Virus record (IMG/VR): IMGVR_UViG_3300029258_001854
Length of the DNA stretch: 53,083 nt
Strand: one strand, 5' to 3'
Source of the DNA: a virus
The notes below the pieces were generated by a model, which worked only from the letters and a program-made list of their open reading frames with translations, was not told the DNA's origin and ran no database searches. Below, piece by piece: positions 9,666 to 27,179 of this stretch (its first letter is position 1; the number at the start of each line of letters is the position of its first letter). Position numbers and translations under genes: made by a program.

Positions 9666-10895
9666 TTAGTTAAGCTGGAGAATCTTGATTGCCTCAGGAA
9701 GAACAACCTTGCCGGTGTTCCATCGATGCATCGTGAATTCAACAATAGCTTCCTTCTTGCGAGTGTAGTCATCACGGATGATCTCTGTCGCCGTCCGGTC
9801 AACAATGAGATAACCAATGTTGAACGCGCCGTAGGCCATGCACTTGGCCGTAGCAGCAACATCAGGCATCGAGTTGGCGAGGACATACGGATCACCAGCA
9901 ATCGTAGCACTAGCAGGGCCATTCAGACCAGGCTGGAACAGATACTGACCTGTGGTGCTCTTCTTTGTGCGGAGGTCAGACAGTGTTCGTCTGTTCAGCA
10001 CGAAGACACCATTGTAACCCGTCTTCAGCTCACCCTGGAGCTTCAGCGGATCATCAGCATCGAGAACGCCAGCAGCACCAGCACCAGTAACAACACCAAC
10101 ACGAGTATCGTTCATGAAACCAGTCGGAGCCTTGTGACCCGAGCCAACAACAAAGCCGTTGCCCTCACCATAAGCGAAAGCCTCAGCACCATCAGCGATG
10201 ATCTCAGTCTCCATGTCAAAGGACGAATCCATGAGCATGTCTCGTGTGATCGGGACTGTGTGCGTCAGGCGGAAAGCCGTCAGCGTCTCGCTGCCATAGG
10301 AGCTAACACTCTCCTGGCTCGTCTCAGTCTCACCCTCGTACTGCGCAGTCGGAATTCCAGTGCGAACCGGAACCACCAGGCTCTTCGACGATGTAGGTCG
10401 GACACGGGCAATCGAGCGAATCGGATCAATCTCTGTGATCTGCTTCAGGATCGACGTTTCCATCTCCGGCACAACAAGAACACCGCCGTCTGTGGCGTTG
10501 TCCGTGCGAAGCTCAGCCTTATACTCAGCGTTCATTCTCTCTTCACCCTCAAGGATGTAGGAGTTGAAAGCCTTGTACTCGGTCGACTCACGATAGTCAG
10601 AGCCCTCAAGCTTGCCCGCGCTCTTGGCGAGAGCAATCTCAAGCGAATCCACCTGCTCGCGAATCTTGCCAGCCTCGACACCCTTCTCCTCAAGCTCATT
10701 CTTGAAAGCCTTGATGCTTTCTTCGTGAGCAAGAATCTGCTGGTTCGCCTTGACAAGCTCCTGATTCTTGACTTCATACTCGTCGAGAATCGCATCAAGC
10801 TTCATGCGCTTCTCTTCTGTAATGGTACCAGCTTCGACGCCCTTTCTCAGCTCGTCGATAGCCTGACCAACTTTCTCAATAGTAAGTTCAGACAT
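9666..10895 (-). CDS. Major capsid protein, HK97 fold, with N-terminal coiled-coil (delta/scaffold-like) region
   Basis: 409 aa. The N-terminal 100 aa are rich in E/K heptads. The core has HK97-like blocks (TAFRLTHTVPITRDMLMDS..., AFAYGEGNGFVVGSG). It follows the prohead protease. Confidence 0.85.
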   Translation of the reverse strand: MSELTIEKVGQAIDELRKGVEAGTITEEKRMKLDAILDEYEVKNQELVKANQQILAHEESIKAFKNELEEKGVEAGKIREQVDSLEIALAKSAGKLEGSDYRESTEYKAFNSYILEGEERMNAEYKAELRTDNATDGGVLVVPEMETSILKQITEIDPIRSIARVRPTSSKSLVVPVRTGIPTAQYEGETETSQESVSSYGSETLTAFRLTHTVPITRDMLMDSSFDMETEIIADGAEAFAYGEGNGFVVGSGHKAPTGFMNDTRVGVVTGAGAAGVLDADDPLKLQGELKTGYNGVFVLNRRTLSDLRTKKSTTGQYLFQPGLNGPASATIAGDPYVLANSMPDVAATAKCMAYGAFNIGYLIVDRTATEIIRDDYTRKKEAIVEFTMHRWNTGKVVLPEAIKILQLN

Positions 10896-11959: not shown

Positions 11960-12655
11960 TTATAGCTGTGATATTCTAGTCAATTCTGCAGAATCTACAG
12001 AGTAAAATACTGAGCACCTACAATTTACAATGTTTCCTGCACTTGCACCAAGGCTAGGATCGCCTGGATACAACAGATATTCATTGTCAACTGTAAAAGG
12101 TTCATCTAAATTAACGGTTTGACCTTTTGCAAATGCATGGTGATCTCTCATTCTATTATCACCTATGACATCCCATCTTTTGGTACCAGAACTATTTGAA
12201 ATTCCACCTTGCAAGAACTGAACTTCTCTTAACTTTGTATGTTCAGATGCCCATTCAGTCTCAGTAGCTGAAATAGTTACAGAACGAACGCCCATTCTAA
12301 ACTGAAACATGTTCAATTTTTCTTGGTTGGACAAATCCATTTGCTGTATTTTATTCCAAATCTTTTTGCTGTTTTCTGATATTAAAGATGCTTGCCTATT
12401 TGCCCTATTTTCAAATTCATGCTGGACATAATCTTTCATGGTCAGACGCTGAAATTTAGGCATTCTGATTTCTTTTCTGTCTTGATAATTTCTGGAAAAG
12501 GAATCATATGTGCGATTGTAGTGCCCTACAAGAAACTGCTCTAAATTTCTCCGCTGGAATTCAACTGGGTTTCTCAATATTCTGCCTAGATTGCTTATGA
12601 ATTGGGATTCAAGCCTGAGCTTTTCTCTCAAATCACGTTCTGCATTCCTAGACAT
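11960..12655 (-). CDS. Head morphogenesis protein (Mu gpF / SPP1 gp7 family)
   Basis: 231 aa directly after the portal gene. The C-terminal PGDPSLGASAGNIVNCRCS motif is typical of the family. Confidence 0.7.
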   Translation of the reverse strand: MSRNAERDLREKLRLESQFISNLGRILRNPVEFQRRNLEQFLVGHYNRTYDSFSRNYQDRKEIRMPKFQRLTMKDYVQHEFENRANRQASLISENSKKIWNKIQQMDLSNQEKLNMFQFRMGVRSVTISATETEWASEHTKLREVQFLQGGISNSSGTKRWDVIGDNRMRDHHAFAKGQTVNLDEPFTVDNEYLLYPGDPSLGASAGNIVNCRCSVFYSVDSAELTRISQL

Positions 12656-13944
12656 TATCTAAGAGTCTCTACATCCAACTCAGGATCATTGTTTACAACA
12701 TCCTCGCCAACAGGAACCAGTGTAGAGGGCTTGTAAATGAGATCTCCACCAGCATAGTCTTCACGACCAATTCTGTTTCTAAGCTCATTATCAGACTCGA
12801 TGCCAAGATCCTTGACCTTAGTCACCTCATCAAGAGTTCTGCGCTTCAGAGAAGGAATCTTGTCCTCATCATAAGTCAGATACTCACCAGGGCCAAGACC
12901 AAACTTGTCACCAATGTCTCTTTGGATTCCTTGGAATATGACCTTGGACAGAGGTGTCACAGCATCATCATAGAGCATCTCAATGCCAGTAGCAAGATTG
13001 TTGAATGTAGAAGCATCAACTGTGAGAAGCTGCAAAGGGTAGTTGTAAGCAAGAGCAACAGCTTCCTGTGCTATCTGCATACCCTTGGACCAATCCATGT
13101 CATTGTTTGTCATGGAAAGGTTCTTCACATCAAGCTTACCACCAGCAGTAACGCCAATAGCACCAGCATTAGCAACGCCAGCATACTGATCATTAACCTT
13201 CTGTCTTACAGCAGTAAACTCATCCTCATCCATGTCATTCTCAAAGTGGAATATAAGCGACATTCTGCCGCCCTTCTCCAGAACGCTGAGATTATGGCTT
13301 ATGCCAAGTGTTTGCTGTCTAGCATAATTTGAAGCAGCAACAAGAACAGACTGACCCCTAAACATAGAGTTGTCTCTTGTTGAAAAGTCCCTGTGCTGTG
13401 AAAGTGTTCTCAGTCCGTTCTGATAATCAATGTAAACTTCTCCATCTCGCTTATAGCAGCCGGGAAGCAAATCACCATTGACATCAAAAGCAGTTAGAAA
13501 CCCATCAGAATTCTGATAGGAGACAAATTCAGGTGACATAGGATATGCCTGCTTTGGAGCAGACTCATTGTTCCCAAGGTATATAATGAAGAACTCACCT
13601 GTAACAAGATAGTATATAGCAAGCTGCTTTAAAAACAGGTATCTCGTGTGGTCTTCAGAAGGCTTGCGCAAAAAGTCCAGAATTGGATGCTCTGTAATCT
13701 TTGCCTTGTCTTTAATGATAACAGGCTCAAGCTCTGCCAGCTTATCAGCAATCTTACGCACTGGCATCATAACTGCAAGACTCTGCTCATAAAGGTCAAG
13801 GCAACCCTTGGGAGTCTTTGCATTATTAGTTGCACCGTAAACCATAAAGTTACGGAGCTCATCGAATCCACCAGAACTCTTAATTTCAACAACTCTCGGC
13901 GAAGACTCAGAAGAGCCACGACCGAAAGGCCAGAAATTTGCCAT
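12655..13944 (-). CDS. Portal protein (HK97-type)
   Basis: 429 aa directly downstream of the large terminase, with portal-like composition. Confidence 0.8.
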   Translation of the reverse strand: MANFWPFGRGSSESSPRVVEIKSSGGFDELRNFMVYGATNNAKTPKGCLDLYEQSLAVMMPVRKIADKLAELEPVIIKDKAKITEHPILDFLRKPSEDHTRYLFLKQLAIYYLVTGEFFIIYLGNNESAPKQAYPMSPEFVSYQNSDGFLTAFDVNGDLLPGCYKRDGEVYIDYQNGLRTLSQHRDFSTRDNSMFRGQSVLVAASNYARQQTLGISHNLSVLEKGGRMSLIFHFENDMDEDEFTAVRQKVNDQYAGVANAGAIGVTAGGKLDVKNLSMTNNDMDWSKGMQIAQEAVALAYNYPLQLLTVDASTFNNLATGIEMLYDDAVTPLSKVIFQGIQRDIGDKFGLGPGEYLTYDEDKIPSLKRRTLDEVTKVKDLGIESDNELRNRIGREDYAGGDLIYKPSTLVPVGEDVVNNDPELDVETLR

Positions 13945-13950
13945 TTTATA

Positions 13951-15375
13951 TTATCCTACGTGTACGCGGCCAGTGTTATCAGTAAGTTTCTTCAAACCGA
14001 GTGAAGTTGCATCAACTTGGTCTTTATACTTACCAACCGGGAATTTCCTAAGCTCATCAAGGTAATCATTCGTCCAGTCTCTTGCAAGAACTTCTACATT
14101 GCTAACGTCTAGCTGAATAGCCAAGGGTTCAGCACGAGTCTCTTTAGCACCTTTCGGTGGCTCGTGATATGCCCTAAAGCCAGCTAGATTAGCAATTGTT
14201 CCCTCTGCAGATTCCTTGCCGCCTGATCCACCCTCTTGCTCAATATAGATGCGAATCTTTTTCCCATCTAATTCAGCAACATTCTTAATGGCCTTTTCCC
14301 TTTTCGCAGCTGAATGTTGGAACTTAACAACATCGGTGATGCATATCCTTCCATTCTCCAGCAATGCAATTCTAACGCCAGCAGTTCTAGCACCAGCCCC
14401 TTCGGTGCCAGCTTTATCCCACGCTCTGACTTCCTTCTTTATAGGCGCGGAAGGCTCTGCTCTTACTTCAACATTATCAACGTCAAGCATTGTACCTTTG
14501 CGCGGAGTTGGGACCTGCTGATATTGACCAGCATATGCATAAGATCCCATATTCTTCTTCAGCCGAGCAATTTCCTCATTACCAATATGCTCAGGCCAAA
14601 GTAAATCACCCTCATTCTCTCTAGGATCTTTGAAACCAGTAACTTCAACGCTACACTTGATCTGCGGGTCATATTCCATTGGAAGGCAAAGATGTTCCCA
14701 TCCACCCTTCTCCAAAAGATGACCTGTGATGTCGCGCTCATGTACGCGCTGCATAATAATGAAGCGACAACCAGTCTTCGGATCATTCAGGCGGGAGGAC
14801 ATTGTCTCATCCCACCAAGTTACAGCACCTTCTCTTCTTGCATCAGATTCTGCTTCATTAACATTGTGCGGATCATCACAAGCAACAAAATCGCCACCTT
14901 CACCAGTTGCAACACCTTCTACTGAAGTAGCAATCCGATAGCCAGTGGCAATGTTCTCAAACTTGATTTTCTGATTAGAATCTGCCTCTAACTTAATAGG
15001 CCAATTCTTCTGAAACCAAGGAGATGTGATAATACGGCGCATCTTCATTGAATCACGAATGCTAAGTGTCTGAGCGTAAGATGCATAAACAAACTTAGCA
15101 GAAGGCTCATCAGTCCAAATCCAAGATGGAAAGAAAACTGACGCAGCAAGCGATTTCATACACCGAGGCGGAATGTTAATGATTAGCTGACGAATCTCCC
15201 TTTTGCGAAGTGCTTCCAGATGGTCACAGATAGCATCAATATGCCAGTTCGATCTGAAAGGGTATGCAGGCTCTACAATATCCCAAGCTTGACTAATGAA
15301 GTGCTTTAGACTCCTTGTGGCAAGCTCGCGATACAATCCATCTCTATCTCTCAAATAGTCAAGTGCCGCACTCAC
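13951..15375 (-). CDS. terL: Terminase large subunit
   Basis: Walker-A-like NIPPRCMKS, Walker B/coupling GDFVACDDPHN, and nuclease-half motifs (IYIEQEGGSGGKE, DQVDATS). Confidence 0.9.
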   Translation of the reverse strand: MSAALDYLRDRDGLYRELATRSLKHFISQAWDIVEPAYPFRSNWHIDAICDHLEALRKREIRQLIINIPPRCMKSLAASVFFPSWIWTDEPSAKFVYASYAQTLSIRDSMKMRRIITSPWFQKNWPIKLEADSNQKIKFENIATGYRIATSVEGVATGEGGDFVACDDPHNVNEAESDARREGAVTWWDETMSSRLNDPKTGCRFIIMQRVHERDITGHLLEKGGWEHLCLPMEYDPQIKCSVEVTGFKDPRENEGDLLWPEHIGNEEIARLKKNMGSYAYAGQYQQVPTPRKGTMLDVDNVEVRAEPSAPIKKEVRAWDKAGTEGAGARTAGVRIALLENGRICITDVVKFQHSAAKREKAIKNVAELDGKKIRIYIEQEGGSGGKESAEGTIANLAGFRAYHEPPKGAKETRAEPLAIQLDVSNVEVLARDWTNDYLDELRKFPVGKYKDQVDATSLGLKKLTDNTGRVHVG

Positions 15376-15658: not shown

Positions 15659-16276
15659 CTATTTCTTGTCCAAGCTTTGTTCAAGCTCAGCAAGCATTTC
15701 AAGCTGTTCAGTAGTCAACGACTTGAAGTCTATTTCAACAGGCTTGTCTCCACCCTGGTGCTCAACCTGAATCTTGTCACCATAGACAGTCGGCAGTCTC
15801 TTTGAAACATACCACTTTCTAGCGCCGATTCTGTTTGCATTGGTCTGAAGTATGCCCTTAACAACTCTCTCAAACTGCTTGTTCATGCCCTCTTTATAGG
15901 GGTTGTCAATATTGCGCAAAGACTCTTCTAAAAGGTCGGCTGTAGTGCTATCAGTACCATCACTGATATCAATGATCATCTCACCCATGGCCGAAGCCTG
16001 GAACTCAGCAGCCTTTAGATATGCCTGTGTGAATGTCTTCGGTGTATCCCTAGCACCTCTTCTCCAAGAAGCCCAAACCTTCATATCAAGAGGGATCAAA
16101 GCACAAGCTTGTCGATCTGTGAGACCGATCATCATGTACTCTAATATGATTCTTGCTTTATCAGGTTGAAACTGTCTCGGATCAATATCCTGAGGGGCTC
16201 TGAAGTAATCACCGTTATCACCGATGTCACCTAAGAACCATTCAACTTGAATTGACTTAAGATCCTCGTCCGTCAT
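15659..16276 (-). CDS. terS: Terminase small subunit
   Basis: 205 aa upstream of terL. It has an HTH-like LTDRQACALIP and a C-terminal NANRIGARKWYVSKRLPTVYGDK block typical of TerS proteins. Confidence 0.7.
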   Translation of the reverse strand: MTDEDLKSIQVEWFLGDIGDNGDYFRAPQDIDPRQFQPDKARIILEYMMIGLTDRQACALIPLDMKVWASWRRGARDTPKTFTQAYLKAAEFQASAMGEMIIDISDGTDSTTADLLEESLRNIDNPYKEGMNKQFERVVKGILQTNANRIGARKWYVSKRLPTVYGDKIQVEHQGGDKPVEIDFKSLTTEQLEMLAELEQSLDKK

Positions 16277-16667
16277 ATCCAGCTATCCGTTTCTGCGCGT
16301 ATTTGACAAACGCTACGGATTTTAGGATAGCGAAACTTCCGGGCACGCCTAATAAATTTTCCAAAGAGATTAGGAATGTCCAATTACCTCTATTCTTCCT
16401 GTGGGCAACTACCGGCTCACGACCTATAGCGCGACAATCCATGACTGCTTTGAGCCACCATTTGTCATAAGTTGAAAAATAAGTTACATTCTCTACTCGC
16501 TTGACTTCATAAGCAAAAGGATGGTTTTCAGGTATTACATCAATCCCTCCAGACCTGACTTGCTCGAGATTTCTCTCAGGCACAGACTCAACTAGATGCT
16601 TCTGATACAGCCATGTACAGAACTCACGTTCACCGGCTGCTCCCTTACTTCTGGCATTAATAGGCAT
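16257..16667 (-). CDS. PD-(D/E)XK nuclease, Holliday-junction-resolvase (Hjc)-like
   Basis: The start at 16667 is supported by AAGGAG 6 nt upstream; the longer tracked start at 16862 runs through the repeat array. Motif RSKGAAGEREF...AYEVKR. Confidence 0.6.
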   Translation of the reverse strand: MPINARSKGAAGEREFCTWLYQKHLVESVPERNLEQVRSGGIDVIPENHPFAYEVKRVENVTYFSTYDKWWLKAVMDCRAIGREPVVAHRKNRGNWTFLISLENLLGVPGSFAILKSVAFVKYAQKRIAGYDGRGS

Positions 16668-16686
16668 GAATTGCTCCTTTACCTTT

Positions 16687-16695
16687 ATTATAGCG
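16687..16695 (-). promoter_or_regulatory. CGCTATAAT promoter (-10), copy 5, driving the late block
   Basis: The minus strand reads TTCGCTATAATAAAGGTAAAGGAGCAATTCATG. The same 9-mer occurs at four plus-strand sites. Confidence 0.55.
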
Positions 16696-16716
16696 AATTT
16701 ATAGGGCTGAAGAAAG

Positions 16717-16797
16717 TTGAAAACCAATCGGCGTTTCCGGGTGGAAAATTTTGAAAAAATTTCAGCCAACCTGGTTCCTAGGTTGAAATTTTTGAAA
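16717..16797. repeat. A/T-rich block with four TTGAAA copies and small palindromes (AAAATTTT, GAAAAAATTTC)
   Basis: TTGAAA at 16717, 16751, 16783 and 16792. It lies between the late promoter and the dyad array. Confidence 0.6.
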
Positions 16798-16846
16798 TCG
16801 GTCTCAGCACTCGCGAGCGGCCCCGGATGGGCCGGATCTCGTTTCC

Positions 16847-16936
16847 CCCCGGGTGAAAACACACCCCCGGGTGATTTTTGAGCCCCCTAGGGTGAAATAT
16901 CACCCCCGGGTGTTGATTTTCCCCCACGGGTGGTGA
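16847..16936. repeat. Array of five dyad-symmetric sites, (CA)CCC-N2-4-GGGTG, spaced 18-21 bp
   Basis: GGGTG cores at 16851, 16869, 16890, 16908 and 16928. Examples: ACACCCCCGGGTGA and TCACCCCCGGGTGT. Confidence 0.8.
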
Positions 16937-16967
16937 TTTAGGGGTAGCGGGGGGGTGCCGGGGGGGT

Positions 16968-16978
16968 TATACTATATT
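16968..16978 (+). promoter_or_regulatory. Candidate early promoter -10 (TATACT / TATATT)
   Basis: GGGGGGTTATACTATATTCA immediately follows the dyad array and faces the early block. Confidence 0.4.
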
Positions 16979-17017
16979 CATGGCGTCGGGGATTTACCCC
17001 GATGCTGGCCGGAGGAG

Positions 17018-17278
17018 CCGATAGAGGGGATTTCACCTCGGGCTAGACGCCCGCGTAGCCGAGTCAACGCGCGTCCGCGATTGTGCGGAGTAACGGACGC
17101 CTACATCCAAATACCCACCAGGGTGGGTAGGTCCACGGTCGGGCGCGAACGGCGATAGCAGCCCGCTCGCGCGGGGGTTTACACCCTCGCTCGCCATCGG
17201 TCCAATGACGTCGCCTAAGCTCGCGCCAAAAAAACAGGCTACGCTCGCACGCGATCGGGGTGAAATACCCTCTATCGG
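17018..17278 (+). ncRNA. GC-rich structured segment closed by a 19/20-bp long-range helix (structured leader, ncRNA or protein-bound DNA element)
   Basis: CCGATAGAGGGGATTTCACC (17018-17037) pairs with GGTGAAATACCCTCTATCGG (17259-17278). Internal hairpins include GCGTCCG..CGGACGC, ACCCAC-CAGG-GTGGGT and CCCGC-TCGC-GCGGG. Confidence 0.45.
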
Positions 17279-17323
17279 TTCCTCGACAATAATCGTAGGG
17301 ATATCCCTACCAAGGAGACAAAA

Positions 17324-17890
17324 ATGTCCGATATTCTCGACAACGCCAACGCCATCCTCATCCCGCTCATCAATGGAGGCACGACCGATGAGGATGAACT
17401 CATGACGGCCCTCGCCAACGCGGGTGGCTTTTCCATCAAGCGCATCCCGTCTCTGGTAACCCAGATTCTCCAGGATGAGGGGCTCCGCACTTCTCCCAAG
17501 GAACGCAACGAGGCCGTGGCTGAGCTCTTTGCCTCGGACACGCCGACCTTCGGAACCTGGGATGACGTCATTGCGGCTGCGGAGCGTGTCTGCGACCACG
17601 TGGCGAACACGACCACGGCGCAGGCGGTCACTTCCATCAAGAAGTGGGCCAAGGCCAACGGTGTGGAGTTGCCCTCCAAGCCCAAGGCGGCTGCGGGTGG
17701 ATCCCGGCGCAACGCATACGATGCCTTCGCAGAGTGGTTCCTGGCAAACCCCCAGGCCACGGACACGGATATCAATGACTATGCCCTGGGTGCCTTCCTC
17801 AAGGATGGGGAGCCCAATGAGAAGCAGGCTGTGAAGTACGCAGCCATCTTCATCCGCATGGCGGCCATGGCCCGCGCCTACCAGGCGTAG
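17324..17890 (+). CDS. Hypothetical early protein
   Basis: 188 aa with an AAGGAGACAAAAATG start context and GC-rich codon usage. A strong terminator follows. Confidence 0.7.
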   Translation: MSDILDNANAILIPLINGGTTDEDELMTALANAGGFSIKRIPSLVTQILQDEGLRTSPKERNEAVAELFASDTPTFGTWDDVIAAAERVCDHVANTTTAQAVTSIKKWAKANGVELPSKPKAAAGGSRRNAYDAFAEWFLANPQATDTDINDYALGAFLKDGEPNEKQAVKYAAIFIRMAAMARAYQA

Positions 17891-17898
17891 CCAAGGGT

Positions 17899-17939
17899 GA
17901 GGGGTGGGGTCCACACGGACCCTGCCCCTCTTGCTTTTT
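17899..17939 (+). terminator. Rho-independent terminator
   Basis: GAGGGGTGGGGTCC-ACAC-GGACCCTGCCCCTC stem (about 14 bp including G.U pairs), followed by TTGCTTTTT. Confidence 0.75.
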
Positions 17940-18031
17940 CTCACATCCAACCTGTGAAGGAGCCAACACCGCAATTTTGCCAAGCCACGCAGATTGCATG
18001 CCAAAATTCATGCCAACACGCTCCAGTGCGT

Positions 18032-19726: not shown

Positions 19727-20098
19727 ATGAGCATCTACAAAATTGCATACCGAGTGTGCCAGAACTACAATGAGTCTGGCTTCGCGTTCACGATTGATGA
19801 GCGGTCCAGTGATCTCGCAGGGGCGCAATTCTTCATCGAGTTTGATGCGAACCCTGACACATCCATCAAGATCTGGGAGGGTCATCGGACGAACACCTAC
19901 AACGTGAGGTGTCGCACTACTGATGACAACATCAGTGATCTCTGGAAGGATCTGGGGTTCCGCGTGGACATGGAGCCTGCGCCTCCTTCGATTGGTGTCG
20001 ATCAGCTGTATTCCTGCAGTCAGTCAACTCCCATCAAGGGTGGTGATATCGACGAACTGGTCACCTTCTGCCTGGATGTTGCCGACTATGTGGGTTGA
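19727..20098 (+). CDS. Hypothetical early protein
   Basis: 123 aa with an AAGGGAATTTGAATG start cassette. Confidence 0.7.
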   Translation: MSIYKIAYRVCQNYNESGFAFTIDERSSDLAGAQFFIEFDANPDTSIKIWEGHRTNTYNVRCRTTDDNISDLWKDLGFRVDMEPAPPSIGVDQLYSCSQSTPIKGGDIDELVTFCLDVADYVG

Positions 20099-20321
20099 TG
20101 AGATCTGCGAACTGAGGCGACGTGCTGACCAAGCGGAAAGCATCGGTGATCACCTGGAAGTTGCTGACATCAAGGCGACTCTGTGCCACTTGGACTACGA
20201 CTTGATGAAGTTGTACGACAAGCCACAGGTCGAGGTCGATGATCAGTGGAAGACGGTGGTCTTCTGGAACATGGTCTGCTCCTATCACTTCCACTACAAG
20301 GAGGCAACGGAATGTATCTGA
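20088..20321 (+). CDS. Hypothetical early protein
   Basis: In-frame ATG at 20088 (MWVDEICELRR...). The longer tracked start at 19923 would overlap the previous gene almost entirely. Confidence 0.55.
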   Translation: MWVDEICELRRRADQAESIGDHLEVADIKATLCHLDYDLMKLYDKPQVEVDDQWKTVVFWNMVCSYHFHYKEATECI

Positions 20322-20374
20322 TCTGGCTGATCGTGATGGCATTCAGTGCCTGGGTGTTCCACGATGCGTCCTGA
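20312..20374 (+). CDS. Hydrophobic micro-ORF (20 aa)
   Basis: MYLIWLIVMAFSAWVFHDAS, with AAGGAGGCAACGGAATG upstream. Confidence 0.3.
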   Translation: MYLIWLIVMAFSAWVFHDAS

Positions 20375-20531
20375 CTACAAGGATAAGTTCACAATGAAAG
20401 CAAGGTACGAAATCTTCAACCTGGAGACGGGTGAAGTGTTCGAGGGCGGATTCTTCACGCTGGAAGCAGCTGAGGACTACGCCTGGGAGCACTACCGTGA
20501 CAAGCCTCACGGTATTCGACAGGTGGGCTAA
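20346..20531 (+). CDS. Hypothetical early protein (start uncertain)
   Basis: Tracked 61-aa ORF. Alternative ATGs lie at 20364 and 20394. Confidence 0.5.
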   Translation: MPGCSTMRPDYKDKFTMKARYEIFNLETGEVFEGGFFTLEAAEDYAWEHYRDKPHGIRQVG

Positions 20532-20537
20532 GCACCA

Positions 20538-20584
20538 CTTTATATGGTCAGGCGACTGGCCATATATTGAGTTGCTTAACTCAA
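20538..20584 (+). promoter_or_regulatory. Intercistronic two-hairpin element, copy C
   Basis: CTTTATA, then TATATGGTCAG-GCGA-CTGGCCATATA, then TATATTGA, then TTGAGTT-GCTT-AACTCAA. Confidence 0.7.
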
Positions 20585-20597
20585 AAGGAGAATGTGA

Positions 20598-20822
20598 ATG
20601 AAGGCCAAAGGCAAGCAATGGCATGAGGGCACAAAGGTGGAATACTTGGGTGGCACCAAGATCCGCTTCACTTGCCCTCGTGGTCATCGCAAAACCCATG
20701 ATTACAGCAAGGGGCCTGTTCACAAGCGCATGGGAGAGTTTGGCTGTGAGTTCATGGCCAAAAGCTGGCAGCGCAATCGCGTTGTCTACCGATGCGTAAA
20801 GTGTGAAAAAAGGAGAATGTGA
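20598..20822 (+). CDS. Zinc-ribbon-like small basic protein
   Basis: 74 aa with FTCPRGH...YRCVKCEK. Start cassette AAGGAGAATGTGAATG. Confidence 0.65.
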   Translation: MKAKGKQWHEGTKVEYLGGTKIRFTCPRGHRKTHDYSKGPVHKRMGEFGCEFMAKSWQRNRVVYRCVKCEKRRM

Positions 20823-21068
20823 ATGAGAATGGAAGATCAGGATATCTTGCCCGGTGATATCATCGAAGTTGGTATCCACGAAGGCAAGACTGTGACTCGT
20901 GTCGAGTTGGACCCTAGTACCAACATGCTTTGGTACAAGGTGGGTGGTCGGTGGATCACTCGTGGCAACCTCATGCTTTCCTTCAGCCCGAGTGCTCAGG
21001 AGAGGGAGCAGGTGGACTTCGTGACTTCTGAGTGGTTCGAGAAGCGAGTCAGGAGGTTGAAGCTGTGA
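20823..21068 (+). CDS. Hypothetical early protein
   Basis: 81 aa. The identical AAGGAGAATGTGAATG cassette spans the upstream stop. Confidence 0.65.
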   Translation: MRMEDQDILPGDIIEVGIHEGKTVTRVELDPSTNMLWYKVGGRWITRGNLMLSFSPSAQEREQVDFVTSEWFEKRVRRLKL

Positions 21069-21247
21069 ATGATCCTGAATTGGTCGCTGGTCGGATGCTC
21101 TCCCAGAGGATGCACCGTGGCGTCAAGATCAAGGATGCCAAGCGGAGTGCCTACCTGATGGCTGAGGCTCATTGGCGAAATGCAGTGGAGAATCAGGAAA
21201 CTGGAAGCGTGATCTTCTGGAGAAAGGTGAAGGAGATTCTCAGATGA
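21065..21247 (+). CDS. Hypothetical early protein (GTG start)
   Basis: GTGA overlap with the upstream stop. 60 aa. Confidence 0.5.
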   Translation: MNDPELVAGRMLSQRMHRGVKIKDAKRSAYLMAEAHWRNAVENQETGSVIFWRKVKEILR

Positions 21248-21627
21248 GATGTTACATCGTGCCTTGGATTGGCGGAGGCAAGTCCTACTTCACAGAGGCT
21301 GAACTTCCCAACGTCATTGGCCCTGATAAGGCCAAGCTGCTGACAAGTGAGTTCCCGGCAATGTACTGTGTTGGGCGTAGTGAATGTGATTTCTACTACG
21401 TCTCAACTACATTCCTGGGGCATTCCTTCAATGGATGTGAACCGCCCACTCCGTTTGAGTCAATGGCCTTCATGAAGGAGAATGGCGAGATCAATTTCAT
21501 GGACATTGACCGTATGCAAGCAACCACTTGGGAGAACGCTGAAAACAATCACCGTGTGCTTGTCGAGAGGTACTTGACCAAGCTGCCGGATGATTGGCCG
21601 AAACTGGAATGGTGGAGGATGGACTGA
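21244..21627 (+). CDS. Hypothetical early protein
   Basis: ATGA overlap. 127 aa (MRCYIVPWIGGGKSYFTE...). Confidence 0.6.
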   Translation: MRCYIVPWIGGGKSYFTEAELPNVIGPDKAKLLTSEFPAMYCVGRSECDFYYVSTTFLGHSFNGCEPPTPFESMAFMKENGEINFMDIDRMQATTWENAENNHRVLVERYLTKLPDDWPKLEWWRMD

Positions 21628-21842
21628 TGCCGAGATGTGAAGACTTCCCTTGTTGTGGTCATCAAGATCCCGATGGGACTTCTTGGTGCCCTGATGAAGA
21701 TGGACGCTTTGACTGCGTCCTGTGCTACAGCAAGTTGCCGAAAGGTGCAACGAGCTCAGTGTGCCAAGGCTGCATGAACAGGCGGCGCTACTTGGACCCG
21801 TTTGAACGAGAGTTCGATGACAGAGAGGAGATGGACTATTGA
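21627..21842 (+). CDS. Cys-rich small protein (metal-binding candidate)
   Basis: TGATG junction. EDFPCCGH...WCPDEDGRFDCVLC...CQGC. Confidence 0.55.
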   Translation: MPRCEDFPCCGHQDPDGTSWCPDEDGRFDCVLCYSKLPKGATSSVCQGCMNRRRYLDPFEREFDDREEMDY

Positions 21843-22051
21843 AGCCCAAGATTTCCAAGAACAGCAAGCTCTGGGTGGACAAGGCTCCTGCTGAAAAGGC
21901 AGAGGTCATCAGAGAGGATGCAGCAATGCTCCGATCACAGGCACACGCCTACATGGTCAAAGCCAGGATGTGCCAGGATGATGCCAAAGCCTTGGAGACT
22001 CACGCCAAGAAATTGGAGAAAGGAGAGGCAACCGAACCCTATCAGTGGTGA
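21839..22051 (+). CDS. Hypothetical early protein (TTG start)
   Basis: TTGA overlap. 70 aa, helical and charged. Confidence 0.5.
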   Translation: MKPKISKNSKLWVDKAPAEKAEVIREDAAMLRSQAHAYMVKARMCQDDAKALETHAKKLEKGEATEPYQW

Positions 22052-22057
22052 GGTGCA

Positions 22058-22104
22058 CTTTATACACTCACTAACACTGAGTGTATATTGAGCAATTCAG
22101 CTCA
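22058..22104 (+). promoter_or_regulatory. Intercistronic two-hairpin element, copy D
   Basis: CTTTATA, then TATACACTCA..TGAGTGTATA, then TATATTGA, then TGAGC-AATTCA-GCTCA. Confidence 0.7.
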
Positions 22105-22116
22105 GATGGAGGAAGT

Positions 22117-22341
22117 ATGGGACTCACAATTGCAAAGATGGAACAGGAGTTTCTTGACATCACTGGCTATGAAAGCATCAATGAGTATCTCGACAGTGGA
22201 GAGGCTCTTGATAGCATTCAGCTGGGGATCTGCAAGGAATGTGGGTACAGCACCAATGTGGAACCGGATCAGGACAAGGGCTGGTGTGCACAATGTGATG
22301 CTGGTACTGTTCAGTCCATTCTCGTCATCTTGGGTATGTGA
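22117..22341 (+). CDS. Zinc-ribbon small protein
   Basis: GGAGGAAGTATG start. CKECGY...CAQCD. Confidence 0.6.
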   Translation: MGLTIAKMEQEFLDITGYESINEYLDSGEALDSIQLGICKECGYSTNVEPDQDKGWCAQCDAGTVQSILVILGM

Positions 22342-22784
22342 TGAACTGCTTTGTGACTAGCAAACAAAAGTTCTGGTCAGATTGGCACCCGAGTGGAGAG
22401 TTCTCAGTCATCTCCATTCAGTCTCCTCCCACACCTTGGGGTGAAGGCAGCTTGACTCCAATAGATGAAAGGTGGACTCAATCCATTGTCCTTGAGTTCC
22501 ATGACATTCTCCCTGATGATACAGTGGACAGGCCGTACACTTTGTTCAGCAAGGAGATGGCAAGTGAGCTCTTTGACTTTATCAGCAGTAGAGTCAAGAG
22601 GGGCAATGAACATAGCTTCCTAGTTCACTGTGATGCTGGAATGAGCAGATCTGTGGCAGTGGGTATGTTCATCAAGGAATACTACAACTACTTTCTGCAC
22701 CTCGAAGTTGCCCAGGATTGTAGCGCGTACAATGTGCACGTTTTTAATCTACTCCGAAGGCAATGGATGCAGAAAGAGGGGTAG
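22341..22784 (+). CDS. Cys-based phosphatase-like protein (CX5R motif)
   Basis: FLVHCDAGMSRSVAVGMF matches the HC-X5-R-S signature of protein-tyrosine/dual-specificity/polynucleotide phosphatases. Confidence 0.6.
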   Translation: MNCFVTSKQKFWSDWHPSGEFSVISIQSPPTPWGEGSLTPIDERWTQSIVLEFHDILPDDTVDRPYTLFSKEMASELFDFISSRVKRGNEHSFLVHCDAGMSRSVAVGMFIKEYYNYFLHLEVAQDCSAYNVHVFNLLRRQWMQKEG

Positions 22785-22801
22785 CGCCAACGTCTCATAT
22801 G

Positions 22802-22810
22802 CGCTATAAT
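22802..22810 (+). promoter_or_regulatory. CGCTATAAT promoter (-10), copy 2
   Basis: ATGCGCTATAATAGCG lies 30 nt upstream of the 22841 ATG. Confidence 0.6.
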
Positions 22811-22840
22811 AGCGTAACCCCCTTGAATTAAGGAGTTTGA

Positions 22841-23326
22841 ATGAACATCTTTTATCTTCACGCCGATCCTCACGTTGCTGCACAATATCAGTGTGACAAG
22901 CATGTTGTCAAGATGATTCTTGAGACTGCTCAAATGCTGAGTACAGCACATCGGGAGTTGTCAGACGAGTGTGATATTCCTGAGCATGCCTATAAGGCAA
23001 CTCATGTCAATCATCCTTGCAGTATCTGGGTGCGTGAAAGTGGATACAACTACGAATGGGCATATGAGCACTTCATTGCCCTTTGTAAAGAGTATTCATT
23101 CAGATATGACAAGACCCACCTGACTTACAAAAAGCTAGGTGCATCACTCTTGCTTCCACCGACTAAGATGAAGCTGGGTCATTTCACCGAGCCTCCTCAG
23201 TGCATGCCAGATCAGTACAAGCACTCTGATCCTGTTCAAGCATACCGTGCCTATTACAAGGGTGATAAGGCAGATATTGCTCAATGGTCAAAGGGGCGAC
23301 CTGCTCCCAGTTGGTGGAAAGCATGA
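22841..23326 (+). CDS. Conserved viral protein of unknown function
   Basis: 161 aa. The N-terminal MNIFYLHADPHVAAQYQCDKHVVKMILETAQML looks like a motif I recall from other phage and giant-virus proteins. I do not assign a function. Confidence 0.6.
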   Translation: MNIFYLHADPHVAAQYQCDKHVVKMILETAQMLSTAHRELSDECDIPEHAYKATHVNHPCSIWVRESGYNYEWAYEHFIALCKEYSFRYDKTHLTYKKLGASLLLPPTKMKLGHFTEPPQCMPDQYKHSDPVQAYRAYYKGDKADIAQWSKGRPAPSWWKA

Positions 23327-23514
23327 AGAGAAATGACAACTGTGTAATCTGCGGGCTTACCAGTGAGTTCATCAATGGTCTGAACTCAAAGCAAGAATGT
23401 GAAAACTGTGAAGCCTTGTTTGATATCGTAGATGAAGATGAGGTGGATCTTTCAATAGTGGAGGATGGGTATGACTGGATCAATAGATACCGAAGAAGTC
23501 GTCAAGAAGTTTGA
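23323..23514 (+). CDS. Zinc-ribbon small protein
   Basis: ATGA overlap. CVICG...CENC. Confidence 0.5.
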   Translation: MKRNDNCVICGLTSEFINGLNSKQECENCEALFDIVDEDEVDLSIVEDGYDWINRYRRSRQEV

Positions 23515-23821
23515 ACCTCTCGGCCATGCAATCCAAGGGTTTGTTGCAGGACTAGTGAACTTTCACTGGTACACCTGGAAGCGGGAGGTAAAGCAATACC
23601 CTCCTGCCACAGATAGACTGCCGCCTGTTTGGATTGATACAGAAGATGTAGTTCACTCTGTGCTAACCAAAAACTCTGATCTTTACTTTGCTGCCGAGCG
23701 AGTTGATGATGTTTACAGTGACTTCATGGACTATCACGTTGGCTATATGCTCGCAGGAATCTTCAAAGACATTGTGTGGATGGCTATTGTAGTATGCTTG
23801 ATTGCGAAGGGTTCGTGGTAG
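23465..23821 (+). CDS. Hypothetical protein with C-terminal hydrophobic segment
   Basis: 118 aa. IVWMAIVVCLIAKGSW at the C-terminus. Confidence 0.5.
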   Translation: MGMTGSIDTEEVVKKFEPLGHAIQGFVAGLVNFHWYTWKREVKQYPPATDRLPPVWIDTEDVVHSVLTKNSDLYFAAERVDDVYSDFMDYHVGYMLAGIFKDIVWMAIVVCLIAKGSW

Positions 23822-24410: not shown

Positions 24411-24595
24411 CTACACAAGCGCAAAAGTATCGTAACAACCTCATAAGTGCTATAGGTACTGTTATGAGGGAGTGTCCTGATTTGACTTTCCAGCAAATCA
24501 TCAAATCAGTCTTTGATGGGAAGAGCATTCCTGCTGATGACAAAGATGCATATGATCAAATCATTCGCTGGATGATTAATCATGGGGACTCTTAG
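24407..24595 (+). CDS. Hypothetical small protein
   Basis: 62 aa. ATGA overlap upstream. Its last 10 nt overlap the tRNA 5' end. Confidence 0.55.
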   Translation: MTTQAQKYRNNLISAIGTVMRECPDLTFQQIIKSVFDGKSIPADDKDAYDQIIRWMINHGDS

Positions 24596-24662
24596 CTCAG
24601 TTGGTTAGAGCGCCCGGCTCATAACCGGATGGTCCTGGGTTCAAGTCCCAGAGAGTCCACCA
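24586..24662 (+). tRNA. tRNA, anticodon CAT (elongator Met or Ile2-lysidine type), CCA encoded
   Basis: Hand-folded cloverleaf: acceptor GGACTCT/AGAGTCC, D GCTC/GAGC, anticodon loop CTCATAA, T CTGGG-TTCAAGT-CCCAG, A73, CCA. Confidence 0.85.
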
Positions 24663-24678
24663 CTTTACTTGGAGCAAA

Positions 24679-24873
24679 ATGAACTGCACAATATGTAATG
24701 AGTATGTGAATCCAAAACGAATTAAAATTGGCTATAAAACTTGTCTAAAATGCGGTCAGCATTTTGCTGAAAAAGAATCAGCAAGAAGGAAGAAATGCAT
24801 TGCTCCTGCATTCAACAAAGGTCCATACATGTATGTGACTGGTAAAAGTATGGCAAAGGATGTAGGCAAGTAA
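24679..24873 (+). CDS. TraR/DksA-like C4 zinc-finger protein (tentative)
   Basis: CTICNEYVNPKRIKIGYKTCLKCGQ. GGAG lies upstream. Confidence 0.5.
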   Translation: MNCTICNEYVNPKRIKIGYKTCLKCGQHFAEKESARRKKCIAPAFNKGPYMYVTGKSMAKDVGK

Positions 24874-24916
24874 AGCTCGCCCCTGCTGGCATACCGGGGT
24901 CTAAACTTGTATGCCA

Positions 24917-25018
24917 CTATATGGATACCCATTAGAACAAATACCGTGGATGCGGAGTGTTAATTGGGACAGGCGGTTTGTCCCCACTCATGCAACCGTC
25001 TAATGGGTATCCACATAG
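24917..25018 (+). ncRNA. Candidate stable RNA: 102-nt rod-like imperfect hairpin
   Basis: 24917-24936 pairs 19/20 with 24999-25018. Inner helices: TGC/GCA, GGAGTG/CACTC, GGGACA-7 nt-TGTCCC. Confidence 0.5.
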
Positions 25019-25161
25019 TATTTTATTGTTGAAGCATTATCAGGTGTATGGGCGTTGCAGGACGCTGCGACAGAGCAAGCGTGGCTCAGAGAAAATGGCC
25101 AACTCAAAACACGAGGGCTGCTTCTTAACTTTGGTGCGGTAGGTAACACCAGAGACTATGT

Positions 25162-25236
25162 GCCGATTTAGCTCAGAGGTAGAGCAGCTGATTTGTAATC
25201 AGCAGGTCGTCAGTTCGAATCTGACAGTCGGCTCCA
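25162..25236 (+). tRNA. tRNA-Thr (anticodon TGT), CCA encoded
   Basis: Acceptor GCCGATT/AGTCGGC, anticodon stem GCTGA/TCAGC, loop TTTGTAA, T GTCAG-TTCGAAT-CTGAC. Confidence 0.9.
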
Positions 25237-25256
25237 TTTAACAACAGGGGTGCAAT

Positions 25257-25364
25257 ATGCCTGGATCTGGAAAAGCAAAGCAGAAGAAGATGGCAAAGAA
25301 GAAGCGGCACAAGGAGTGCCTTGCCATCAAGCGCAAGAAGAAGGCTGAAAAGAAGGGGAAGTAG
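25257..25364 (+). CDS. Lys-rich micro-ORF (35 aa)
   Basis: MPGSGKAKQKKMAKKKRHKECLAIKRKKKAEKKGK. AGGGG lies upstream. The 3' end overlaps the next tRNA by 10 nt. Confidence 0.35.
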   Translation: MPGSGKAKQKKMAKKKRHKECLAIKRKKKAEKKGK

Positions 25365-25430
25365 CCCAACGGCAGAGGCAGGAGACTTAAAATCTCTACA
25401 GTGTGGGTTCGAATCCCACCTTCCCTACCA
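25355..25430 (+). tRNA. tRNA with anticodon TAA (Leu by anticodon) but a class I (5-nt) variable region, CCA encoded
   Basis: Exactly 76 nt with standard numbering. Acceptor GGGGAAG/CTTCCCT (G1.U72), loop CTTAAAA, variable ACAGT, T GTGGG-TTCGAAT-CCCAC, A73. Confidence 0.75.
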
Positions 25431-25448
25431 TTTTAATGAGGAATTTGA

Positions 25449-25592
25449 ATGATGCCTAGAATTGGTGATGATCTTACACTTGAGCCGCCTCTTGATCCTC
25501 CTGATGATGATGAAGTGTGCGATGATGAGTATGACTACTCAGATTATGAGTCAAAGGAAGACAATGCTGCGTACTGGGGTGACTGGGATTGA
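25449..25592 (+). CDS. Acidic micro-protein (47 aa)
   Basis: GAGGAATTTGAATG cassette. MMPRIGDDLTLEPPLDPPDDDEVCDDEYDYSDYESKEDNAAYWGDWD. Confidence 0.5.
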   Translation: MMPRIGDDLTLEPPLDPPDDDEVCDDEYDYSDYESKEDNAAYWGDWD

Positions 25593-25996
25593 CCTCTAAC
25601 ACTCTTTACATTCTCAGGGGTGTTCCTGGGTCTGGTAAGACCACTCTTGCCAACTTGATGACTATTGGATTCAATTCTGTGGACATTCATGCTGTGGCCT
25701 ATGCTGCTGATGATTACTTCACAGATGAGAATGGCAATTACAGGTTTGACAAGAAGCGTCTTGGCGAAGCTCATGATTGGTGCCAGGACAGAGTGCTCGC
25801 TGATATGAGAGCAAGGATTCCTGTCATCATTGTGCACAACACTTTCGTCCAGATTTGGGAGATGAAGCCGTATATGGATATGGCAGATGAGAGTGGTTAC
25901 ATTGTCAATGAGATTGTCTGTAAGGGGCGATGGATGAATCAGCATGGAGTCCCTGATGAAGTCATTATCAGTATGCAGAATCGTTGGGAAGATTGA
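25589..25996 (+). CDS. P-loop kinase-like ATPase (AAA_33/polynucleotide-kinase-like)
   Basis: TTG start with TTGA overlap. Walker A GVPGSGKTT. Short 135-aa kinase-sized fold. Confidence 0.65.
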   Translation: MTSNTLYILRGVPGSGKTTLANLMTIGFNSVDIHAVAYAADDYFTDENGNYRFDKKRLGEAHDWCQDRVLADMRARIPVIIVHNTFVQIWEMKPYMDMADESGYIVNEIVCKGRWMNQHGVPDEVIISMQNRWED

Positions 25997-26003
25997 TAAA
26001 TAA

Positions 26004-26080
26004 GCACCCGTAGCTCAGTTGGATAGAGCAGCTGCCTTCTAAGCAGCGGGTCGCAGGTTCGAGTCCTGCCGGGTGCGCCA
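26004..26080 (+). tRNA. tRNA-Arg (anticodon TCT), CCA encoded
   Basis: Acceptor GCACCCG/CGGGTGC, anticodon stem GCTGC/GCAGC, loop CTTCTAA, T GCAGG-TTCGAGT-CCTGC. Confidence 0.92.
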
Positions 26081-26125
26081 TCACCCAAACTTTAGGTTTT
26101 ATAACCCAAAAGAAAGGTGGAAAGC

Positions 26126-26356
26126 ATGAAGGTTTTCGAGGAAATCGGAAGGTTCTGGTCTGCTAAATCTTTGCTAGTTGGAAAGATTGGAGAACATGAA
26201 CACTGGAAAGTTTATAGTGAACTAGAGACTGGGAACATTATTGAGTATTACGAAGACGGGGAGTGCAAGAAGGAGTTGGTACTACCGTGGGAGCCAGAGC
26301 TATTGATTGCCATTGGCGAAGCGATCTGCGCTCTAGGGAAAACAAATAATGAATAA
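26126..26356 (+). CDS. Hypothetical small protein
   Basis: ATG at 26126 after AAAGGTGG. 76 aa. Confidence 0.55.
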   Translation: MKVFEEIGRFWSAKSLLVGKIGEHEHWKVYSELETGNIIEYYEDGECKKELVLPWEPELLIAIGEAICALGKTNNE

Positions 26357-26801
26357 GTCTAAAGAAGCAGAGGACCGCATTGAAACGCTCCAATCTGAAG
26401 TTGAAGAAAGAAAGCGCTTGTGGGTTGAAGCGATGGACGAGGCACAGACGCAGAAAGATCGCGCCGCTGCCGCCGAGGCCCGCGCCGCCGAGTTGGAGGA
26501 CGAGCTGCGCCGTCGCCAGGAGATCATCGACGACGCGCGCATTCGGATGGACAAGCTTGACCTCGCAGACCGGCTGGCGGAGGCGGCGAAACCCGCGATC
26601 AAGCAACTCTTTAGCTACGATCACGCACCCGGCGTCCGAGTGGCCGTCCCTCTCAAGGAGGCCCTCGCCGCCTACCACTCGGCGAAAGCTGTCGTGAACG
26701 ATCCGCACCCGGACACGGAGCGGCTGGACTGGCTCCTCCGTGTCTACCGTCTCGACCGTGAAGCAATCGACGCAGCGCGGGAGGGGAGTCGTGAGGATTA
26801 A
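26349..26801 (+). CDS. Hypothetical coiled-coil protein, strongly GC-rich gene
   Basis: 150 aa rich in A/R/E. Its composition contrasts sharply with flanking DNA. It lies between tRNA-Arg and tRNA-Ile. Confidence 0.6.
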   Translation: MNKSKEAEDRIETLQSEVEERKRLWVEAMDEAQTQKDRAAAAEARAAELEDELRRRQEIIDDARIRMDKLDLADRLAEAAKPAIKQLFSYDHAPGVRVAVPLKEALAAYHSAKAVVNDPHPDTERLDWLLRVYRLDREAIDAAREGSRED

Positions 26802-26819
26802 ACTGTTCTACTCGCCAGA

Positions 26820-26896
26820 GGGCCTGTAGCTCAACTGGTTAGAGCACACGTCTTATAAGCGTGCGGTTGTGGGTTCGAGTCCCACCAGGCCAACCA
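26820..26896 (+). tRNA. tRNA-Ile (anticodon TAT), CCA encoded, G1-A72 mismatch
   Basis: Acceptor GGGCCTG/CAGGCCA, D GCTC/GAGC, loop CTTATAA, T GTGGG-TTCGAGT-CCCAC. Confidence 0.85.
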
Positions 26897-27074: not shown

Positions 27075-27179
27075 ATGGAAGATGGTTACTGTGTAGTTTG
27101 TGGTGATTTTGATGAACTTGATTCGGAAAATTGCTGCCCAAACTGTGACCTAGATGAATTGGAAGAAGATGGCAATTAA
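27075..27179 (+). CDS. Zinc-ribbon micro-protein (34 aa)
   Basis: GAAGGTAATGTAAATG cassette. MEDGYCVVCGDFDELDSENCCPNCDLDELEEDGN. Confidence 0.45.
   Translation: MEDGYCVVCGDFDELDSENCCPNCDLDELEEDGN

Follow-up and report, generated by a model that had tools for sequence, protein, structure and literature searches.

We analysed a cluster of five short repeated sites that lies between the divergent packaging and early genes of a phage represented by the IMG/VR record IMGVR_UViG_3300029258_001854. The whole stretch of 53,083 nt is referred to as the window. It carries an exact 144-bp direct repeat at its termini (1-144 and 52940-53083), which is the overlap of a circular assembly. The ends of the window are therefore arbitrary, and the genome is about 52.9 kb long. 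ENA contig k141_2144266 represents the same genome. Pfam and PHROG matches bore out the divergent gene map proposed in an earlier note on this DNA (the original prediction): the minus strand encodes a packaging operon in which the gene of a PDDEXK_15 endonuclease is followed by those of TerS, TerL and portal, and the plus strand encodes the early and replication genes, which extend rightwards from 17324 and include primase-helicase, SNF2 helicase, ThyX, Pol III alpha and ligase. The two blocks are separated by a gap of 656 bp. The array sits inside this gap.

Inspection of the sequence, combined with pattern counts in shuffled DNA, confirmed the five sites (S1 to S5) where the original prediction had placed them, with GGGTG cores beginning at 16851, 16869, 16890, 16908 and 16928. 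Each core follows a stretch of five or six C. The array (16845-16932) thus consists of five CCCC-N1-3-GGGTG sites, and it is the sole cluster of such sites in the genome. When one mismatch was allowed, CCCCNNGGGTG had 15 matches in the genome against 4.1 expected, a number reached by none of 100 shuffles; all three exact matches and four of the one-mismatch matches (S2 and S4, counted on both strands) fall within the array. A repeat search described the region as a 39-bp two-site unit present in two copies with 72% identity. Related units were also found beyond the five sites: TTTCCGGGTGG at 16734-16744, G-run units at 16941-16967, and CCCACCAGGGTG at 17114-17125, within the leader described below. 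The dyad symmetry ascribed to most of the sites held for S2 and S4, which are true CACCC-N2-GGGTG dyads; S1, S3 and S5 consist of a C-run plus GGGTG only. The proposed phasing on one face of the DNA was not borne out: spacings of 18, 21, 18 and 20 bp correspond, at 10.5 bp per turn, to cumulative rotations of 0, 257, 257, 154 and 120 degrees.

Relatives were obtained from a metagenome protein index only, through homologues of the flanking proteins. Close relatives at the DNA or protein level were not found among deposited phages or in IMG/VR, the best TerL match in a deposited phage being 40% identical. The same divergent junction was present in five lineages: the window, L092/L111, L094 with its copies, L078/L106 and L105. 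L108 is a partial sixth. Late and core genes of the lineages are 75-85% identical at the nucleotide level. L092, an independent lineage, keeps all five sites in order, with spacings between the cores of 21, 21, 18 and 20 bp (18, 21, 18 and 20 bp in the window). The bases of the GGGTG cores are identical (25/25), whereas identity is 27/40 in the eight bases upstream of the cores and 22/40 in the spacers. Over a background divergence of about 25% such conservation of the cores has a probability of about 1e-4. In the adjacent leader no DNA similarity between the window and L092 is detectable any longer. Because the cores, the order and nearly the same spacing are kept while the spacers drift and the leader diverges, the sites are evidently under selection. 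The comparison supports the original prediction in that the array is a cis-element on which selection acts, each of its sites having persisted in L092.

The window and L092 are continuously similar (73-82%) from the packaging genes across the array; the similarity ends near 16950, just before the -10 box discussed below. A sliding comparison revealed no similarity between about 16950 and 19950. In 12.8 kb of L092 the sequence CCCGCGGGT, the core of S1 and S5, occurs four times, always in the gap, twice in the array and twice in the leader; a search with it gave 9 matches against 1.05 expected. In L078, L094 and L105 only the first site is kept, and the rest of the slot of 105-130 bp is filled with other short repeats: three copies of CCCCGAGGG in L105, three copies of TTCGATTTCG in L094, and a close pair of sites plus GGGGTGAAAACACCC in L078. 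Conservation of the array among related contigs, a check suggested in the original prediction, is thus partial: site number, cores and nearly the same spacing recur in L092, but the three other lineages lack the five-site array. Seven contigs of the same species have an unchanged array, which is little informative with only about 1.7% variable positions overall.

Downstream of the array the original prediction had noted a -10-like box. The sequence TTATACTATA at 16967-16976 occurs once in the genome, and TATA[AC]T is conserved in the five lineages; it is the only hexamer on the early side that is common to all of them, and it lies 105-130 bp past the second of two conserved CGTTTC motifs. No canonical sigma-70 promoter was found in 16500-17500, and the TATACT box has no canonical -35 element. 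The -35 slot contains three G-run units resembling the GGGT(G/A) cores of the array. GGGGTAGC and CCGGGGGGT are retained in L092, and the middle unit is missing from same-species variants. Relative to the inferred transcription start the array extends from 131 to 54 bp upstream, with site centres at about -131, -113, -92, -74 and -54. A sigma-54 reading of GGCAC...AGC was dropped after a by-eye check, as its spacing and its GG are not conserved.

The inferred start is followed by a GC-rich, strongly folded leader. In the other lineages the TATA[AC]T box is likewise followed by leaders of 270-450 nt with 56-60% G+C. The leader of L078 has a fold z-score of -6.5, and hairpins with 11 compensatory pairs are common to the 3' halves of the leaders in three other lineages. 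These features support TATACT as a candidate -10 box that would drive a structured 5' leader. The leader may be a new phage leader or noncoding RNA, a target of RNase III or an antitermination element. An Rfam search of the array and the leader returned no family at gathering or E-value thresholds. A GC island (17001-18000, 61% against about 43% in the genome) spans the leader and the first early gene, and it gives rise to a spurious antisense open reading frame (ORF) of 323 amino acids (aa) at 17033-18004.

Table. Positions of the features discussed; coordinates refer to the window, except for the last four lines, which refer to the contigs named
Feature	Position	Strand	Remarks
Portal gene	12655-13944	-	Pfam/PHROG
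TerL gene	13951-15375	-	Pfam/PHROG
TerS gene (Sf6-like)	15659-16276	-	Pfam/PHROG
PDDEXK_15 endonuclease gene	16257-16667	-	Pfam and PHROG; first in the leftward packaging operon
-10-like box TATAAT, leftward (late operon)	16687-16692	-	Function inferred
TTGAAA/TGAAAA repeat block	16717-16797	+	Four TTGAAA copies; 63% A+T
CGTTTCC(G)GGTG	16732-16743	+	First conserved CGTTTC motif, fused to a sixth GGGTG unit
GC hairpin (16818-16834), then GATCTCGTTTC	16818-16845	+	Terminator-like; holds the second CGTTTC (16840-16845)
Site S1	16845-16855	+	CCCCCCGGGTG; kept in all five lineages
Site S2	16862-16873	+	CACCCCCGGGTG; dyad
Site S3	16883-16894	+	CCCCCTAGGGTG
Site S4	16901-16912	+	CACCCCCGGGTG; dyad
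Site S5	16921-16932	+	CCCCCACGGGTG
G-run units GGGGTAGC, GGGGGGGTG, GGGGGGGTT	16941-16967	+	In the -35 region; TRF period 10
-10 box TATACT, rightward (early)	16968-16973	+	Inferred transcription start near 16981
GC-rich (61%) structured leader	16980-17323	+	RNA fold z-score -6.9 against shuffles
Leader closing stem	17012-17040 / 17256-17284	+	Inverted repeat
Optional leader hairpin, 82 nt	17139-17220	+	Exactly this domain absent from same-species variants
Small hairpin and Shine-Dalgarno sequence	3' end of leader	+	Before ATG 17324
First early gene, 188 aa	17324-17890	+	No family; about 50% identity in all five lineages
Early-gene module matching L092	19727-23821	+	Pool of candidate binders; protein comparison
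Zinc-ribbon-like proteins	20598-20822, 21627-21842, 22117-22341, 23323-23514, 24679-24873, 27075-27179		
RepB_primase/DUF3987 primase-helicase gene	28755-30992	+	Next gene begins at 30992
Post-primase repeat region, L096	1950-2290		
Post-primase repeat region, L098	960-1230		
Post-primase repeat region, L100	1100-1415		
Post-primase repeat region, L102	1180-1455		

The left part of the junction contains elements common to all five lineages. The predicted minus-strand TATAAT was found in its place, and in all five lineages a box of this type (TATAAT, TATAGT or TATACT) lies on the minus strand 20-35 bp from the PDDEXK start. Of the A/T-rich TTGAAA block that had been described next to it, the four TTGAAA copies in 16717-16797 proved to be non-random (Poisson P about 7e-7, about 4e-4 once corrected for the number of windows), but its A+T content is only 63%, against 57% in the genome. 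TGAAAA-type repeats are present at this place in all five lineages. In each lineage they are flanked by two CGTTTC(C) motifs at a distance of exactly 105 or 108 bp, which corresponds to some 10 helical turns. In the other lineages a short GC inverted repeat and then a T-rich (A)TTTTTCGTTTCC tract were recognised by eye, without folding, ahead of the first site. The CGTTTCC pair and the TGAAAA block are conserved together with TerS, PDDEXK and the primase-helicase; on the basis of this distribution they are better candidates than the array for a pac or late-promoter signal.

The ORFs that overlap the junction were examined for coding capacity. As predicted, the PDDEXK gene starts at 16667 and not at 16862: the homologues are 130-144 aa long, and in three of the five lineages the reading frame meets a stop 0-9 codons upstream of the start. 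The extension is not conserved, and ORF 16257-16862 is, by this comparison, an artefact of an open upstream frame. Two small ORFs over the array (16717-16881 on the plus and 16778-16927 on the minus strand) were taken as non-coding, as the protein is not conserved and there are indels between lineages. The PDDEXK_15-TerS-TerL gene order is kept in every relative examined, divergent and collinear alike. An HNH-TerS-TerL arrangement is known from cos phages, and the analogy hints at a possible role of the nuclease in packaging. A pattern scan of IMG/VR for paired sites yielded 77 loci, none of which had been recovered by the protein-based IMG/VR scans for the clade; of the two loci inspected, one is a tandem array of 23-bp units and the other codes for collagen-like repeats. 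The former, at 10300-10540 of the unrelated contig L043, comprises about ten tandem copies of the unit CTATCCTGCCCCTCGGGTGGCCG.

Next we asked which protein might read the array. TerS, PDDEXK and TerL are similarly conserved in all lineages (78-81%, 76-79% and 84-89% identity, respectively), and the N-terminal half of TerS is nearly identical in the four lineages aligned. The primase-helicase is 78-81% identical within the clade and has no positions specific to the window and L092. Since TerS and the primase-helicase are equally similar in the three lineages that lack the array, both are disfavoured as readers of the five sites. The first early protein was also rejected, being about 50% identical in every pair and having no patch specific to the window and L092. 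A module of early genes (Table) is likewise shared with L092, the sole lineage to have the array in common with the window. The nucleotide identity of the module to L092 is 80-99% at 19950-22850 and 23325-23775, and no other lineage matches it. Most of its proteins are 64-92% identical to those of L092, whereas L094 and L078 either lack them or have versions with 28-44% identity; the exception is the protein encoded at 21627-21842, which is 74-78% identical in L094 and L078. With 80-99% identity against 75-85% in the core packaging genes, the module looks like the product of a recent horizontal exchange. Six small early proteins contain paired Cys-x-x-Cys (or similar) motifs; they resemble zinc ribbons, have no family assignment, and are all possible nucleic-acid binders. 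Genes for five tRNAs (Met, Thr, Leu, Arg and Ile) are clustered at 24586-26896 among the small early genes.

We tentatively favour the interpretation that the array consists of putative binding sites from which a regulator specific to the lineage acts on the early promoter. The rightward early promoter would be controlled by a sequence-specific protein that binds the five sites as double-stranded DNA. By oligomerising on the array, the protein could recruit the host RNA polymerase and replace the -35 contact. Regulation could also have the opposite sign, if the protein coated the region later in infection and shut off the early promoter. In addition, the bound protein might act on the leftward late promoter at a distance of 280 bp. 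The reader of the array would differ between lineages and would most likely be a small unannotated early protein, a host factor being another possibility. Binding, the kind of binder and the sign of regulation are what we infer from the sites, their conservation and their geometry with respect to the -10 box. Two dyads, together with tandem C-run/GGGTG sites next to an inferred promoter, are features of an operator, and array-type sites on both sides of the promoter (in the array and, in the window as well as in L092, in the leader) would suit a looping regulator. As a phage control element the array is of an ordinary kind.

Several observations weigh against a regulator array. The motif occurs at no other promoter of the genome, which would be unusual for a general regulator, and the promoter itself is a candidate recognised from the conserved hexamer alone. 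Five tandem repeats of about 20 bp beside a repeat-rich block fit an origin too. The module is 80-99% and the array 73-82% identical to L092, the array being at the level of the core genes; the link between array and module is weak, as their co-occurrence could be explained by shared ancestry, and we regard it as a lead only. Pfam, PHROG and further searches of 30 early proteins, those of the module included, revealed no helix-turn-helix or other recognisable DNA-binding family. A 60-aa basic protein encoded at 21065-21247 was modelled with confidence as a three-helix bundle, which had no significant match in the PDB.

The main alternative is that the array belongs to a replication origin, an explanation that we consider rather doubtful. 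The five units would then be iterons for an initiator, the duplex would be opened at the TGAAAA block or by adjacent transcription, and the RepB-type primase-helicase would prime synthesis, possibly within the GC-rich region with many hairpins on the right. The layout, with tandem 18-21-bp units, partly dyad-symmetric, by a repeat-rich block slightly higher in A+T, is consistent with this, and so is the presence of genes for the RepB_primase/DUF3987 primase-helicase, Pol III alpha and ligase. The array also lies where transcription diverges and where the cumulative GC skew has its minimum (17-18 kb), although the minimum is confounded by the coincident switch in gene orientation. The unwinding element that had been proposed beside the iterons would be a weak one: the candidate block has 63% A+T against 57% in the genome, and it is 48 bp from S1, beyond the GC-rich hairpin. 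Four more distant, collinear relatives add weight to the origin explanation with a layout like that of SaPI origins. Directly downstream of the primase-helicase gene they have lineage-specific 9-bp G-run repeats (AAGGGGGTA in L096, AATAGGGTAA in L098, TAGGGGAAG in L100 and AATAGGGGG in L102). The repeats are present in both orientations and form two clusters, with a GC hairpin and an A/T-rich stretch (19 consecutive T in L096) between them; the C-terminal ~100 aa are the most variable part of the primase-helicase in these relatives. A combination of iterons with hairpin priming signals for the RepB' primase is found in the oriV of RSF1010 (PMC8567376). In the window, however, the array is 11.8 kb upstream of the start of the primase-helicase gene and 14 kb from its end, and the junction has no detectable homology to the repeat regions of the relatives; a similarity noticed by eye (CTRAGTAC...CGATTTT) was not supported by nhmmer or blastn. 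The primase-helicase was the only initiator candidate tested; it is uniformly conserved within the clade and does not co-vary with the array, although the initiator could be a different protein. An IncQ-like inverted pair of priming hairpins (an ssiA/ssiB analogue) was rejected, as the 29-nt long-range inverted repeat is present only in the window lineage, and a second origin-like cluster detected by a k-mer scan in the polymerase gene (38.7-39.0 kb) has no array structure. The position of the array relative to the conserved -10 box and the lack of co-variation of the primase-helicase led us to favour an operator over an origin. It is unlikely, in our estimation, that the array and the GC hairpin island to its right constitute a phage origin of a new kind, or a switch that combines origin and early promoter, in an uncultivated marine or saline clade. 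Its reader would be a small early protein without a known DNA-binding fold, and the specificity of the repeats would turn over fast against a background of constant replication and packaging enzymes, as in determinants of immunity or incompatibility.

Three further explanations were considered. Formation of structure by the repeats, rather than binding of a protein, seems to us quite improbable. GGGTG would pair with the next CACCC to form hairpins in a transcript or in single-stranded DNA, extending the leader, or the C- and G-runs would give an i-motif or G-quadruplex. Adjacent units were indeed read by eye, without folding, as hairpins in both lineages (GGGTGA-AATA-TCACCC in the window, GGGGTGA-CTTT-TCACCCC and GGGTGC-CGAAAA-GCGCCC in L092), with changed loops and wobble-compatible changes, and the neighbouring leader is strongly structured. 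Dyad-symmetric sites, however, pair with their neighbours automatically, so that the hairpins add no independent information, and with the -10 box downstream and a terminator-like hairpin just upstream the array is probably outside the rightward transcript. Loops of 14-16 nt between the runs are poor for quadruplexes, and the first G7 run after S5 (16949-16955) is dispensable in same-species variants. Neutral turnover, in which slippage would create repeats in a spacer whose length and not sequence matters, is in our view very improbable. In its favour, every lineage has its own amplified short motif in the same 105-130-bp slot, and many short metagenomic contigs break in or near the junction; the invariant GGGTG bases speak against it, as does the maintenance of site number and spacing next to a leader that has diverged beyond recognition. 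We give least credence to a pac or cosB-like site, which the original prediction had offered as an option. The repeats would be bound by TerS oligomers, which would direct TerL, and possibly the PDDEXK nuclease as well, to the first cut. The array is 180-265 bp upstream of the PDDEXK-TerS-TerL operon and 570-660 bp from the start of terS, and the DNA similarity to L092 continues from the packaging genes across it. The repeated sites near terS recall lambda cosB and SPP1 pac, where TerS binds repeats that precede terS or lie inside it. TerS, however, is similarly conserved in the five lineages and the five-site array is lacking in three (L078, L094 and L105); the elements conserved alongside TerS are the CGTTTCC pair and the TGAAAA block, and the contigs are circular with arbitrary ends, so no terminus is marked at the array.

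The clade has no cultured relative. The junction provides a compact and testable map, on which the leftward late promoter is followed by the CGTTTCC/TGAAAA block common to all lineages, the lineage-specific array, the conserved -10 box and the structured leader. That phage control regions swap short repeats while the enzymes stay constant is expected from phage mosaicism and will not surprise specialists. If the binder were found among the unannotated early proteins, one of these would gain a function, and the switch of early transcription would be explained.

The array can be compared with several known systems. Like the R1-R3 sites of lambda cosB and pacL/pacR of SPP1, its repeats are directly upstream of a small-terminase operon; unlike them, the array varies between lineages of nearly the same TerS, and there is no evidence for a terminus. 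A ParR/parC-type centromere was rejected: the neighbours are the PDDEXK nuclease, TerS and unannotated early proteins, with no match to a partition family in Pfam or PHROG. In the lambda origin four dyad-symmetric iterons of about 19 bp, bound by the O protein, are located by an A/T-rich stretch inside the initiator gene. The array resembles it in its tandem, partly dyad units of about 20 bp, in the A/T tracts that separate the cores and in its proximity to a block richer in A/T. It differs in being intergenic, no O-like initiator was found, and the weak A/T block is on the far side of the GC hairpin.

The origins of SaPI/PICI elements have 6-12 short iterons directly downstream of the rep gene, with an A/T-rich centre and opposite orientations (PMC9371898). 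This layout is closely matched by the collinear relatives L096, L098, L100 and L102, and the window encodes the same kind of primase-helicase. The units of the window, unlike those of SaPI/PICI, are about 12 bp long at a spacing of about 20 bp, have one orientation, lie on one side and are not located by the primase-helicase gene; only one related unit (16734-16744) was found on the other side. In the oriV of the IncQ plasmid RSF1010, iterons for RepC are combined with the hairpin signals ssiA and ssiB for the RepB' primase (PMC8567376). The window shares with it tandem repeats of about 20 bp followed by GC-rich hairpin DNA, and a primase domain of the RepB family. Neither a RepC-like initiator nor a conserved inverted pair of 40-nt signals was found, and the hairpin region of the window is between a -10 box and a ribosome-binding site, as in an mRNA leader.

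The remaining comparison is with small phage switch proteins that oligomerise on tandem sites between divergent or facing promoters and set both promoters: p4 of phi29, with sites between A2b/A2c and A3, Apl of phage 186 and Cox of P2 with its Cox boxes. A search of the early proteins revealed none resembling p4, Cox, Apl or Cro. The sequence of the array is unrelated to these systems, its spacing is 18-21 bp instead of about 10-11 bp (Cox and Apl), and its binding is only predicted. Like the p4, Apl and Cox sites, the array consists of closely spaced repeats in a short early-late control region, upstream of a promoter with a weak -35 element.

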